IMG/VR virus record: IMGVR_UViG_3300011890_000001
Span: 32,001 to 96,000 of that record
Reading direction: 5' to 3' (one strand)
Source of the DNA: a virus
Lineage: Duplodnaviria; Caudoviricetes
DNA: 64,000 bases
Under the pieces are notes generated by a model, which did no database searches, had not been told where the DNA came from, and saw only the letters and a program-made list of their open reading frames with translations. The position numbers and the translations under genes were made by a program. Below are positions 38,637 through 49,732 of this stretch, piece after piece. Position 1 is the stretch's first letter, and every line of letters starts with the position of its first letter.

Positions 38637-38876
38637 TTAGCGCCTACTGCGACGGGTAGGGACCACCGTCAGCGAGTCGAGCGAGTAGTTGTGAAGAAAC
38701 AGAACGATACTGTTCATGTCTGCCGCAGCATACAGCTGCACTCCAGTCTTTTTCTTGCACAAACGGAAAGGTACTTCGCTACCGACCACCGTTTCTACGG
38801 TAACGAGCTTACGCTTTTGTTTGTACTCGGCAGATGCCTGGATTGCCTTGATTTGTGCGGAAACATCGGTGGACAT
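38637..38876 (-). CDS. small hypothetical protein
   Basis: Convergent with 38158-38592 across the bidirectional hairpin 38591-38633. Confidence 0.55.
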   Translation of the reverse strand: MSTDVSAQIKAIQASAEYKQKRKLVTVETVVGSEVPFRLCKKKTGVQLYAAADMNSIVLFLHNYSLDSLTVVPTRRSRR

Positions 38877-38967
38877 GGTTATTGCCTAGAGTTCTCGGTG
38901 TGTAGGTGAAAGGTTTCGAGGGTTGTAAAACATATGATTACTTATTTTTTTACATAGCGGTTAATCA

Positions 38968-39695
38968 TGTAGAACTACCTTCAGTTCGCCAGTAAGTTCG
39001 GACATCGATAAAGCTAGCCTTAGCGGTCAGCGTATCCGTTATGTTCCCTCTGAATAACGAAGTCGGCGGTTCTACTCACGCACGCAGCCCCTTGAGGTGA
39101 TCACCTCAATGTTACAGTTAGATCCTAAGAATACGCGGGATCGTCAAGACCCAGAACCGGCCAACGCAACATTGCGCTCGCCGTCTGCGTTAGTTGGACT
39201 GTAGCGTTAAAGCACCAGTGTGTGCAGACGTTTAGGTTCGCCTAAGCGGCCACTTAAGGGGTTGCGTGCGTAACCAGTTTCAAGAAAGTTGTACGTTATA
39301 GATCGCCAGCGATGCTTCTTTAACGTACAGTGCGGGGCCAGGGTGATGGTGACGACGAGTCCCCACCCAGATACAGCCTCTACAGTCGCGTGTACTAACG
39401 GTGAGACGCGACGAAGTATTTGGAGTCATCGTTTCTTTAAGGGGTCCATAGTGACAACTTAATTGTATTCGATATCGCAGACGAAACCGTATGGGCTCCA
39501 CGATCGGGGGTCAAGTTGTAGTTCTTTTTAGGACGTGCAGCCTACAGACCATTCGGTAACTTCGCCTTTGTGCGGAGACTGAGTGGTCTGTGGGGTGTAG
39601 GCCTGTGTAGCCATCACCTTCGGGGTTGTTGACGTGGACGTAAGTCTACGGAGCTTCTTGGTGACCCTAGGGGGCTTCGGCTCCCTAGGGTTTTT
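38968..39695 (+). ncRNA. large structured non-coding RNA candidate (~720 nt), family unassigned
   Basis: No credible ORF; more than 10 helices, whose G-U pairs work only on the + strand; UUCG/GNRA loops; ends in a UUCG terminator with U-tract. Confidence 0.7.
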
Positions 39696-39703: not shown

Positions 39704-39811
39704 AACCAGGTAAGGATAGTTTAAAAAAACTGAGGACCTTAGTATCTATGTGAGTGCCCAGTGTAAACCACAGGCAACGTCTAAACTACCCTTTCTAAAA
39801 AGGAATCTACA

Positions 39812-40315
39812 GTGACTGAATCCCACGAGCTCAAGTACCATCCCATGCAGTTTACTCTGCCGGCATATATCGCGTGGATCGAGGCCGAGGGGTTCGTACC
39901 GGACCTCACCATCAACGTCATCCATCCGAACGTGATGGTGCCCGAGCGTATCCTCCCGAAGAAGGCTGATCAACTTCTGATCCTGAACCTGAGCACCGCA
40001 GCAATCAGCGGCGTGGACTACAACGTGGAAGGCGTGTCCTTCAGCGCACGTTTCGGCGGTAAGTCGGAAATGGTCTTCATTCCGTACCAAGCGATGGGCG
40101 GTCTGCGGATGCGCGGCTCTAACCACTACGTTCCGCTCAACCCGGTTGCACTCGTCGCCCGTACGGTTGAAGAGTTTGGCGAGATCGTCACTTCGGCCGA
40201 CCATATCGCCAGGCACAAAGATTCGGACAAGACCGACAACAGTCAAGACAAAACCACGCCGATCGAAAGCCGTGACGGAAACGTCATCGTTGGCAATTTC
40301 GGTCGCAAGAAGTAA
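39812..40315 (+). CDS. sspB: SspB-family ClpXP adaptor
   Basis: AYIAWI...P.L.I....V.VP....ILNLS.AAI......GVSFSARFGG....FIPY.AM. Confidence 0.85.
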   Translation: MTESHELKYHPMQFTLPAYIAWIEAEGFVPDLTINVIHPNVMVPERILPKKADQLLILNLSTAAISGVDYNVEGVSFSARFGGKSEMVFIPYQAMGGLRMRGSNHYVPLNPVALVARTVEEFGEIVTSADHIARHKDSDKTDNSQDKTTPIESRDGNVIVGNFGRKK

Positions 40316-41260: not shown

Positions 41261-41314
41261 TCCACTCAGCGGCCGGTGTCAAACGCCGGCCGCTTTGCTT
41301 CAAGAGGACAATCC

Positions 41315-43945
41315 ATGAGCCAAGATGATCAGAGCATCATCCAGGTCAATCTGGAAGATGAGATGCGTAGGAGCTACCTCGACTACGCAATGAGCGTGAT
41401 CGTTGGCCGAGCTCTTCCCGATGCGCGCGATGGCCTGAAGCCGGTACATCGTCGCGTTCTGTATGCAATGAGTGAGCTGGGCGCTCATTCCAATCGCCCC
41501 CACTACAAGTCGGCACGTATTGTCGGTGACGTGATCGGTAAGTATCACCCGCACGGTGATCAGTCTGTCTACGACACGCTGGTGCGCATGGCTCAGCCTT
41601 TCTCGCTGCGCTACATGCTGGCTGATGGTCAGGGTAACTTCGGTTCGGTGGACGGTGACTCCGCCGCAGCAATGCGCTACACCGAGGCACGCATGTCTCG
41701 TATGGCCCATGAGCTGATGGCTGACCTGGACAAGGAAACCGTCGACTTCCAGCCGAACTACGATGAAAAGGAAAAGGAGCCGACGGTCATGCCGACGCGC
41801 TTCCCGAACCTGCTCATCAACGGTACCACTGGTATCGCAGTGGGTATGGCTACGAGCATTCCGCCGCACAACATGTCCGAGACCATCCGGGCGTGTATCG
41901 CACTGATCGACAATCCGGAGATCTCGATCGCCGACCTGATGGACTATATCCCCGGTCCGGATTTCCCGACTGGCGGTATCATCAACGGCACCTCCGGGAT
42001 CATCAACGCATACCACACTGGTCGTGGTCGTGTTCGCATTCGTGCCAAGGCGACGGTGGAAACCAACGAGCGTGGTCGCGAGTCCATCGTGGTTACCGAG
42101 CTGCCGTACCAGGTCAACAAGGCACGACTGATCGAGAAGATCGCCGAACTGGTGCGTGAGAAGAAGATTGCAGGTATCTCCGAACTGCGCGATGAGTCCG
42201 ACAAGGACGGTATGCGTGTGGTGATCGAAGTCAAGCGTGGCGACGCGGGCGATATCGTACTGAACAACCTGTACGCCCAGACGCAGATGGAGAACACCTT
42301 CAGCATCAATATGGTGGCGTTGGTGGATGGTCGCCCGATGACCATGAACCTGAAGCAGGTGCTGGAGACCTTCGTTCGCCATCGGCGCGTGGTGGTTACT
42401 CGCCGTTCTATCTTCGAACTGCGTAAGGCGCGTGAGCGTCTGCACCTGCTCGAAGGTCTGACGGTGGCCCTGTCCAATATCGACGAAGTGGTGGAGATCA
42501 CCAAGACGTCGGCCACCACGAACGAAGCGCGTCAGCGACTGCTGGAGCGCGATTGGGATCCTGGCGACAACGACTGGCTGCTCAGTGCACCCAAGGAAGC
42601 GCAGCCTGATGACCTGCCGGCTGGCCGAGGCATGGTGGATGGCCGCTATCGCCTGACCGACGTGCAGGCAACTCAGATCCTGGATATGCGACTGCACCGT
42701 CTGACCGGTCTGGAGCGCGACAAGATCCACAACGAGTACCGCTCGCTGTTGGAGATTGTCCAAGATCTGATCAGTATCCTCGTGAGTCCGGACGTACTGA
42801 TGGCGAAAATCCATCAGGAGCTGGAAGAAACGCTGTCTGAGTTCGGCGACGAACGACGCAGCGAGATCCGTCAGAGTGAAGAAGATCTGGACACCCTGGA
42901 TCTGATTCCGCCGGAAGAAGTCGTGGTCACGATGTCCTCGTCAGGCTATGTCAAGCGGCAGTCGGTTTCCGACTATCGTGCGCAGCGCCGTGGCGGTCAT
43001 GGGCGTTCGGCCGCAGCGACCAAGGAAGACGACACCATCGAGCAACTGTGGACGGTCAACACCCACGATACCTTGCTGGTGTTCACCAGCGCCGGCCGCG
43101 TGTTCTGGTTGCCGGTGTATCAGCTACCGGACGCAGGTTTCAACTCGCGTGGGCGTCCGATCGTCAACTGGATTGCCTTGGGTCAGGATGAGAAGGTGCA
43201 GGCGGTGCTGCCTGTCCGGGACTACAGTCCGGACAAGTACGTGCTGTTTGCGACAGCGGGTGGTACGGTCAAGAAGACGCCGCTCACTGAGTTCGCTTTC
43301 CGTCTGGCTCGCGGTAAGATGGCTATCAGTCTGAACGAAGGTGACTCGCTTGTCGGCGTGGCTCTCACCAACGGTGATTGCGACGTGCTGATGTTGGCCA
43401 CCAACGGTAAGGCCGTGCGCTTTGCTGAGTCCAACGTTCGCTCCATGGGTCGTACGGCCACCGGTGTTTGCGGCATGAAGCTCTCTGGGCACGCCCGGGT
43501 GGCTGGCATGATCGCCGTCAACGACAAGGCCGTTATGGCTCAGGTCGAAGGCGTCGAGCAGGACGAAGAAACCGCCAGCGAGCCGGTGAACGACGCCGGT
43601 CCGTTTGTCCTCGTGGCAACAGAGAACGGCTACGGTAAGCGTACTCCGTTGTCGCACTTCCCGCGCAAGGGCCGTGCAACCAGTGGTGTGATCGGTATCC
43701 AGACTACCGACCGTAACGGTCCGGTGGTTTCGGTGCGTCTGGTTGAAACCAATGACCACGTCATGTTGATTACCGACAGTGGTCGACTGGTGCGTACGCA
43801 GGTGGAAGGCATCTCCTGCGTGGGGCGCAACACTCAGGGTGTCACGCTGATTCGTCTGAAGGACGATGAGCGTCTCCAGGCGGTCGAGCGTATCGACGGC
43901 AACCTCATCCCGGTTGACGTACCGGAAGAAGTAACCGAGCAGTAA
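41315..43945 (+). CDS. gyrA: DNA gyrase subunit A
   Basis: [29 protein letters not shown] (catalytic Tyr), GyrA-box QRRGGHG, beta-pinwheel repeats; GAGGA RBS before ATG 41315. Confidence 0.97.
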
Positions 43946-48471: not shown

Positions 48472-48645
48472 GGGGATCCGGCGCCGTAGTTTCCGTCACT
48501 ACCCACCAGTAAAGCACAGAAGGATAACTACCGTGTCGAACATTCTTCAATTCCGCCCTCCTGTCGTTCAGCAACGCCGTCTTGAAATCTTGAATTCTGA
48601 CAAAGCTACCGACGATAACGTCGATCAGGAATGAGGGTGTAGGCA

Positions 48646-48972
48646 ATGAACAGGTCTAGCTACTCCACTGCCATCGTGGTCGAGAGACTCTTGGTGCCGA
48701 AGAAAGGTAAACTCGATCAACAGTTGAAAGAAAGTGAGGCGAGGCGATTCAAGGTCTCACGGCAACAGCTGGTTCGTTATTTCCGGGGACAGTTCGTCCA
48801 TCGGCACAAACGATCTGTCAGTCGACAGCATGCGCTGACGAACAAACCGCTGGTGTCGAGAGTAAAGCTCGATAATTGCTATCCCACGGGCTTCGGTGGA
48901 GAGACCATCAAGGTACCGAGCGACGCAGTGTTGACCACGACGCTTTCGTTCTCTGTTGCCGGGTCAAAGTAA
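48646..48972 (+). CDS. basic hypothetical protein
   Basis: GAGG RBS. Confidence 0.55.
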   Translation: MNRSSYSTAIVVERLLVPKKGKLDQQLKESEARRFKVSRQQLVRYFRGQFVHRHKRSVSRQHALTNKPLVSRVKLDNCYPTGFGGETIKVPSDAVLTTTLSFSVAGSK

Positions 48973-49073
48973 AAAGACGGACAGTAGGTAGGCGCTCCGC
49001 GAGGAGCGCCTACCTACCGGTTAATTATTTTTTAGACCCGTATCATGTTCACGATAGACTGGAGACAGAGTCA

Positions 49074-49565
49074 ATGAAACACCGCAATTACAAATACACC
49101 GTACATTACCTCGATCTTGACGAAGAGCAACCCAACCCCAGGTACAGTGAAGATTTCTGCCTCGAAGATCATGAGACGTATACCTTCTCTCTAACGGCAA
49201 GAAATCACGCACAGGCAGAACAACGCGCTAAACAGCGACTAGGTTTTTGGGCAATCGGAAAATTTCCCATCATACTGGCCACGGTACCGGAATTGGACGA
49301 CTGCGGTCTTCCTCTTCGGTGGTGTAGCTACGGTCCATTTACTGGCCGCAGTATTGTCTCTCAGGCTCTCCGCTATCGACACAAGAGTAAGAAACTCAAG
49401 GGTCGTCCGAACTACCCAAAACGGCATCGATTGACGAATCGACAATTCACTCTCACCTGGACCTATAAGGTTTCAAATAATCTCCACAGTGTGATGACTG
49501 AATGGCTCGAAAGCCTTTCGAGGACTATCGCCGATATAGACGAGATGCCCCCCAACCCGTCGTAG
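49074..49565 (+). CDS. hypothetical protein
   Basis: GGAG RBS after the terminator at 48983-49030. Confidence 0.6.
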   Translation: MKHRNYKYTVHYLDLDEEQPNPRYSEDFCLEDHETYTFSLTARNHAQAEQRAKQRLGFWAIGKFPIILATVPELDDCGLPLRWCSYGPFTGRSIVSQALRYRHKSKKLKGRPNYPKRHRLTNRQFTLTWTYKVSNNLHSVMTEWLESLSRTIADIDEMPPNPS

Positions 49566-49713
49566 GTGCGCCTGCAGTCACTGAGATCGAAAACGGTGGA
49601 GACGGAAATGTCTAAGAGAGCAATGAGTTATAGGGCTTATTGCCGCGGCTGCGACTAAGTAGCGCCCTGAAGCGTACACACTTTTAACCATCACGCGCCC
49701 GTCAAACGGGCGC
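49566..49713 (+). ncRNA. multibranch structured RNA candidate in the leader of 49733
   Basis: Closing stem 49574-49579/49647-49652 with three internal hairpins, then a GTCAAAC hairpin. Confidence 0.4.
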
Positions 49714-49732
49714 TCTTTTATAAGGATTGCGT

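Follow-up and report, generated by a model that had tools for sequence, protein, structure and literature searches.

A structured RNA gene of nucleus-forming jumbo phages with a core resembling a permuted group I intron

What does the gap between a minus-strand gene for a 79-aa protein (38637-38876) and sspB (39812-40315) encode in the virus studied here? The window analysed, a stretch of 64,000 nucleotides, belongs to a 269-kb virus record in which chimallin (E 4e-28) and a PhuZ-like tubulin are also encoded, and it is part of a nucleus-forming jumbo phage. In the Xanthomonas phages RTH11 and LucasX, the closest cultured relatives (tail sheath, 55-56% identity), the genes follow one another in this order too, and about 800 nt between them carry no annotation. 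Further along the window, a full-length gyrase A of bacterial type with six C-terminal propeller repeats is encoded at 41276-43945. The sequence-only reading had taken the gap for the longest gene-free stretch of the window, which is plausible, the longer gap at 48472-49726 holding ORFs of 108 and 229 aa according to a crude gene caller. It had also proposed a plus-strand structured RNA gene of phiKZ-like phages, possibly of a new class. This proposal was borne out by the present analysis, which found such a gene outside all Rfam families.

The RNA gene, its outer domains and its neighbours

A large structured RNA is almost certainly present at 38969-39695 on the plus strand. This strand folds at -294.3 kcal/mol (z -6.86), a value beaten by 0/20 shuffles; the minus strand folds at -247.8 kcal/mol (z -4.31). 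Coding scores are strongly negative for both ORFs within the RNA, which measure 57 and 73 aa. The gene, its outer parts and its neighbours are as follows.

38637-38876, minus strand: gene for a basic 79-aa protein, the divergent neighbour in most loci by synteny
38938-38955, between the divergent genes: conserved element of TAC-N-TA, T-tract and ACA
38969-39695, plus strand: non-coding RNA with putative ends, from folding, coding scores and homologs
38969-39075, plus strand: variable 5' domain 1
39078-39271, plus strand: variable 5' domain 2, with a 16-bp and a 12-bp helix
39633-39650, plus strand: GUAA-capped 3' hairpin, specific to a subclade
39665-39695, plus strand: intrinsic terminator with an 11-bp stem, UUCG loop and U tract
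39812-40315, plus strand: sspB-like gene (PF04386, E 1e-9), a frequent downstream neighbour

The RNA had been said to start at a CATG and to end in a terminator. Indeed, a CATG ends at 38969 and the terminator was found, as was a terminator-like hairpin at the end of most or nearly all homologs. The CATG is no confirmed promoter, since the phiKZ late promoter motif TATG is crippled by single changes (PMC4666361). The element at 38938-38955, conserved in the window, L005, LucasX, RTH11, L009, L012 and L013, gave no sigma-70 match and is a probable promoter. A CCTTAGTAT-like motif at 39736-39748, 3' of the terminator, is found again in several homologs ahead of the downstream gene and is probably a phage promoter for sspB.

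Twelve of the thirteen helices listed by the sequence-only reading pair fully in the window, and the remaining one, 39281-39290/39652-39660, needs a bulge. Their support was judged against L005, the closest full homolog. The 16-bp helix 39078-39093/39256-39271 retains 16/16 pairs in L005 with 6 double changes, and the 12-bp helix 39108-39119/39197-39208 shows 4; 2 double changes were found in each of the helices 39385-39391/39406-39412 and 39541-39557/39578-39594 (17 bp). The domain 3 model fared worse, about half of its helices failing in homologs, and much of it is a single-sequence fold. Pairs are broken in L005 in the helices 39340-39350/39610-39620 (8/11), 39367-39374/39416-39423 (3/8), 39441-39450/39490-39499 (3/10) and 39290-39298/39321-39329 (5/9), as well as in the suggested pseudoknot ACAACUU/AAGUUGU (39454-39460/39513-39519; 4/7). 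Three of these unsupported domain 3 and pseudoknot pairings use strands of the conserved core.

Domain 2 is missing from the shortest homologs. In constrained folds, 38988-38999 can pair with 39651-39662 (P0), which would join both ends of the RNA; P0 pairs are retained in L005 (4/4 and 4/6), and equivalents were obtained by constrained folding of L009, L013 and L026. Within a subgroup formed by L002, L003, L009, L013, L026 and L040, the 5' domain has a UUUCCU-like pyrimidine loop whose complement, a conserved GGAAAG purine run, stands ahead of the terminator, so that the two may form an additional long-range pairing.

The model of the 79-aa protein (pLDDT 80) comprises two helices, three strands and two short helices. 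A fold search with it gave nothing above background (best Z 4.2), dsRBD entries lying within background at Z 2.4-3.7 (ADAR2: Z 3.7, rmsd 4.2, 70 aligned). Its gene is often linked to the RNA without being obligatory: no 79-aa gene was detectable in phage FLC9, which has the RNA, and strict filters left no convincing RNA match in Xoo-sp14, which has the gene. Four stretches like the 79-aa protein also occur in a 5240-aa protein (P0004), possibly an assembly artefact.

Homologs and the conserved core

A BLASTN search of phage genomes with the window RNA as query returned nothing, as did related-loci searches using sspB, a MazG-like gene and an alignment of the 79-aa protein. Homologs came via neighbouring proteins: the search through adjacent genes of related jumbo phages that had been suggested earlier yielded full cores with compensatory changes. 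More loci were reached by tracking the 79-aa protein, nine cores being found by synteny and not by pattern, and pattern scans together with a covariance model added L017, L018, L026, L040, L099, L256, L276 and the Burkholderia phage FLC9. The resulting set contains 17 full core copies on 16 contigs, including LucasX, RTH11 and FLC9, besides partial or variant copies in L004, L006, L012 and L050. The pattern-found copies L017, L018, L026, L040, L256 and L276 also have GCAGCC and a terminator, both absent from the query pattern. Most pattern matches were rejected as chance occurrences in coding DNA, without hairpins and GCAGCC; a covariance-model match in phiPA3, antisense inside gp086 and without the 3' core, was rejected as well. 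Strict filters left no convincing match in 11 further chimallivirus genomes (SNUABM_54, Xoo-sp14, RP12, DT01, Eowyn, phiPA3, RAY, 201phi2-1, RSL2, FLC4-3B and AgentSmith). For three short copies the folding z lies between -2.6 and -5.6, the predicted strand being better. Because the RNA varies in length from about 280 to 730 nt, the likeness in size to GOLLD and ROOL that had been pointed out is incidental.

Several loci depart from the usual form. L006:1-666 holds a divergent variant with a P4/P6 part and no recognisable P3/P7 part, and L050:9000-9300 (minus strand) another with the 5' core present and the P6 region altered. In L007, the full core is preceded, at a distance of about 200 nt, by a partial second GCAGCC-P6a module, perhaps a decayed tandem copy.

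The RNA is located after tRNAs in FLC9, L018 and L276, and after hammerhead ribozymes, which are script motif matches not called by Rfam, in L099 and in the second tandem copy of L010. Taken with the terminator, these contexts indicate an independent RNA gene. In L010:1857-3000 (minus strand), a terminator and the hammerhead stand between two tandem cores, and the hammerhead would cleave at the 5' end of the second copy. L099:1362-2649, on a contig binned with a Dongiaceae genome, is a stable-RNA island of permuted tmRNA (96.9 bits), tRNA-like element, hammerhead, RNA and then tRNA-Thr. The GenBank record of FLC9 annotates neither the tRNA cluster nor the RNA (L116, FLC9 127600-129600); one tRNA match in this phage is 113 nt long (L116:2586-2698).

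Rfam gave no family for the RNA in the window and 13 homolog loci, the window RNA having no match at gathering score or E<=1.9; tRNA and permuted tmRNA were detected in the homolog loci as positive controls. No covariance-model match to GOLLD, ROOL, OLE, HEARO or raiA was obtained in the window or the 13 homolog loci, nor to GIR1 (RF01807) at E<=1 in the window and homolog loci. The sequence-only reading had seen no signature of RNase P, tmRNA or group I introns. For RNase P this agrees with the lack of an Rfam match and with a different helix order, and for tmRNA with ARAGORN (0 in window and genome) and RF00023 (none in the genome). A tmRNA link, suggested by sspB, was itself considered and rejected, there being no tRNA-like domain and no stop after the GCA-GCC motif; circularisation by RtcB was also set aside, RtcB occurring in only 1/5 carrier genomes. 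For group I the statement is wrong at the family level, where the conserved core resembles a permuted group I core made up of the following parts.

39385-39412, plus strand: P8-like stem (39385-39391/39406-39412), present in homologs with varied sequence
39415-39419, plus strand: P7 3' strand, S-like, pairing with 39392-39396
39420-39485, plus strand: hairpin region leading from P7 directly to P3, 67 nt in the window
39486-39512, plus strand: P3 5' strand (39486-39491), invariant G39493 and inserted hairpin (39494-39512)
39513-39542, plus strand: J3/4 and P4 5' strand AAGUUGU (39513-39519), P5 stub, P4 3' and P6 5' strands
39542-39601, plus strand: P6a, GRWG (39594), P6 3' strand (39597-39598) and J6/7, next to the permutation break

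The P8-like stem closes a 12-14-nt loop that contains the R-like 5' strand of P7 (39392-39396) and the 3' strand of P3 (39397-39402), which pairs with the ACCGUR strand at 39486-39491; the P4 3' and P6 5' strands together form GCAGCC (39537-39542). The P7-P3 linker hairpin measures 36-41 nt in 13/17 copies (31-41 in all but two, which have 62-67) and the P6a span 49-54 nt in 15/17; the P5 stub has 17 nt in the window and up to 283 nt in other copies. The inserted hairpin is paired in 17-18 of 18, and each of its positions shows 3-5 pair types. Near-invariance was found at 33 core positions, and 30 of them hold in the nine synteny-found copies, the invariance of pattern letters being circular for pattern-found ones. 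Double changes occur in three core helices, in counts that ignore kinship, so that cells are not independent events: the P3 end pair, U-G in RTH11, is G-C both in FLC9 and in L256, a close relative of RTH11, the P7 265-310 pair goes from A-U to C-G in L010b, and the second P6a pair from U-G to G-C in FLC9. P7 has only 3 reliable pairs, and a local hairpin rivals the pairing of the P6 3' strand in the window and L005.

Compared with the RF00028 consensus, AAGUUGU resembles J3/4-P4', GCAGCC equals P4''-P6' exactly, G-Y-R-C-A resembles P6''-J6/7, RACUWACGG resembles P7'-J7/3-P3'' and GUY weakly resembles P7''. In the group I register, Q is paired with both P and J6/7, and R with S. U107-A214 and G108-C213 are found in all copies, C216-G257 in 17/17 and G215-Y258 in 15/17, and GCAGCC is invariant. 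The P4/P6 scaffold with P, Q, J3/4 and J6/7 by which group I is recognised is present, the second conserved A of J3/4 (A105) being a G in the RNA. The order in all 17 copies, P7'-P3''-P7''-hairpin-P3'-P4-P6-J6/7, differs from the normal group I order P1-P3'-P4-P6-P7'-P3''-P8-P7''-P9 by a rotation with the break after J6/7 and one hairpin linking P7'' to P3'. Enclosure of R and P3'' by the P8-like stem is a topology unseen in group I introns. P3 and the 3-pair P7 show some double changes, with S hand-placed and the topology unlike group I; the invariance of the S-strand G is partly built in, because S was placed by hand.

Both shuffle comparisons are at the family level and post hoc, since the group I mapping was noticed after inspection of the motifs. 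Free assignment reached 20.2/28 consensus letters versus 16.5 +/- 1.1 (4/3000 pair-preserving shuffles) and recovered P, Q, J6/7 and R unaided, S going to another motif. A fixed, pairing-consistent mapping gave 20.1 versus 7.5 +/- 2.4 (0/50,000 shuffles), with the same result for the nine synteny-found copies. RF00028 matches no RNA copy, and in an unconstrained group I chain search single sequences did not rise above shuffles (0-33 of 60 reaching the score), RNA copies scoring 23-31 versus 42-45 for true introns. The sequence evidence makes group I ancestry likely, a confidence that we hold at this level because single sequences do not beat shuffles.

Ordinary group I introns also occur in these phages. 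The genome has three, without ORFs and outside the window (G000:C1:258566-259166 and 112270-112578; L138, L136, L139); a tandem pair among them, with a spacing of about 50 nt, immediately follows the gene downstream of chimallin. Rfam group I matches were likewise found in LucasX, RTH11, phiPA3, 201phi2-1 and AgentSmith.

Missing splicing elements and candidate functions

No P1 or guide (IGS), P10, terminal G, flanking exons or interrupted gene was found in the RNA loci. P1/IGS, the U-G splice pair, P10, the terminal G and exons are among the defining features of group I introns (PMC3984707); since P1/IGS, P10, terminal G and exon are missing, the RNA is no splicing intron and not a member of the group I family, from whose members its permuted form without splice sites is set apart. 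The linker hairpin occupies the place of P9, terminal G, exons, P1 and P2. At the G-site pair (equivalent to G264-C311), the 17 copies have G-U (7), A-U (4), U-A (3), G-C (1) or no pair (2), the window having U39393-A39418; the canonical G-C is found only in L276, whereas ordinary introns of these phages have GAC/GUC in 13/14. The A-rich J4/5 wobble receptor, GG(G)A after P4, is present in 14/14 ordinary introns and in 0/17 RNA copies; L018 and FLC9 alone have an AAU-like J5/4 with the normal spacing. The base preceding P3 is A in 16/17, with no conserved G or U-G splice pair. Newly fixed are the P3 sequence, variable in ordinary introns, and the G after P3. Selection has shifted to another surface of the core.

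Given group I ancestry, the chances of catalysis in trans are about even. The reading that we tentatively prefer, while rating it somewhat below an even chance, is a trans-acting ribozyme with a rebuilt pocket, derived from a domesticated group I core; it is suggested by the lack of a cis substrate, the rebuilt pocket and catalytic precedents. Indeed, intron derivatives retained as separate RNAs are catalytic in known cases, namely the lariat-capping ribozyme, permuted group II (PMC8637638) and HYERs (PMC12990946). A new ribozyme class, consisting of a natural permuted group I core free of splice sites, with its own gene, acting in trans and having a rebuilt active site, is proposed more cautiously still.

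The computations show the conservation of the RNA, its base pairing, its genomic context, its likeness in motifs and the missing splice elements. For ancestry, tertiary fold, catalysis, substrate and expression, we infer the following. A group I intron would have been permuted at J6/7 and have lost its two splice sites, probably through a deletion that spanned two tandem introns or through the retro-insertion of an intron circle. To go by its contexts, release as a discrete RNA may depend on a promoter and terminator of its own, on tRNA processing or on hammerhead cleavage. The P4-P6 scaffold would pack against the P3-P7 domain, with the two fixed-length hairpins as struts and the variable domains outside. 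In the putatively rebuilt pocket, with the P3 sequence newly invariant and the G site and wobble receptor lost, another RNA would be cleaved or joined by a chemistry without free guanosine, as in the remodelled lariat-capping ribozyme. The sequence analysis identified no substrate, guide sequence or partner for the RNA. Three wastewater runs labelled RNA-seq are probably DNA and consist of contigs only, and so carry no weight for or against expression.

A non-catalytic RNA would account just as well for the lost G site and J4/5. An RNA of the same ancestry could be catalytically dead and act as a rigid scaffold or decoy for a protein (perhaps the basic 79-aa neighbour, perhaps an RNA-binding or defence factor of the host), as the freely varying G-site pair, the loss of J4/5, the linkage of the 79-aa gene in most loci and the helix-three strands-helix layout of its product would allow; we consider this unlikely, though worth keeping in view, given that FLC9 and Xoo-sp14 each show only one of the two and that 33 near-invariant core bases exceed what a passive scaffold usually needs. 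The weak single-sequence scores, the odd P7/P8 topology and the adjacency to tRNAs in three loci could instead point to an ornate RNA unrelated to introns, GOLLD/ROOL-like and perhaps self-assembling, with a chance likeness to group I; the P3 helix may likewise resemble group II domain 5, an illustration of how readily short motifs hint at kinship. This is improbable in view of the family-level group I match in the right pairing register, the failure of GOLLD, ROOL, OLE, HEARO and raiA models to match the window or the 13 homolog loci, and the weak conservation, the weakest in the RNA, of the outer domains that would build a cage.

That the core is compact and pseudoknotted, with a terminator and often sspB after it, would also fit a cis-acting leader, that is, a riboswitch or attenuator governing sspB or another downstream gene via the terminator. 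We regard this as very improbable: downstream partners vary, including tRNA-Thr (L099) and a second copy preceded by a hammerhead (L010), the stretch from terminator to sspB holds a conserved promoter-like motif of its own, and core and terminator do not overlap. Least credible is a working permuted intron that back-splices the P7-P3 hairpin into a tiny RNA circle. Its parts would be ordered as in engineered permuted intron-exon constructs, and L276 retains the G-C pair at the G site, but the P7-P3 gap of only 31-41 nt (62-67 in two copies) holds one hairpin, the base before P3 is A in 16/17 copies, no G or U-G splice pair being conserved, and an exon between terminal G and P1 was looked for and not found.

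Significance and comparison with known systems

Large natural ribozyme classes are few, and to our knowledge the lariat-capping ribozyme GIR1 is the only remodelled group I descendant. GIR1 is eukaryotic and unpermuted, and acts in cis on the 5' end of an mRNA, unlike what is proposed for the phage RNA. Should the trans-acting ribozyme reading be true, a selfish intron would have been domesticated into a gene with a new job, permuting its scaffold and dropping its splice sites and G site. The RNA is directly testable in three cultured carriers (LucasX, RTH11 and FLC9) and in natural minimal versions of about 280 nt, namely L099 and the second copy in L010. Even if non-catalytic, it represents a conserved RNA family of nucleus-forming phages for which no description was found. 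In literature mostly outside subscription journals, no paper was found that deals with this RNA or with any natural permuted group I RNA of bacteria or phages, and the LucasX paper does not mention the RNA.

With group I introns (RF00028; the IA-type of the same phages), the RNA shares the letters of P, Q, J6/7 and R and, weakly, those of S; P4 and P6, and apparently P3 and P7, lie in a common register. Those introns differ in having a host gene, exons, P1/IGS, P10, terminal G, J4/5 and the G-site pair, and the RNA in its permuted order, a P8 rebuilt from upstream sequence and a hairpin inserted after P3. The permuted intron-exon arrangement likewise has swapped intron halves and a closing stem that holds the ends, but it encloses an exon and retains both splice sites, and the RNA has neither. 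GOLLD and ROOL often lie near phage tRNAs. Together with OLE (PMC12286853) they are, like the RNA, large, highly paired and stand-alone, whereas the phage RNA has a small invariant core with optional outer domains. HYER ribozymes (PMC12990946) resemble it as ORF-less intron derivatives, acting on other nucleic acids, and differ in their group IIC fold with domains in normal order. GIR1 (RF01807), a group I descendant that performs a different reaction with a remodelled core (PMC8637638), provides a model for how the phage RNA might work.
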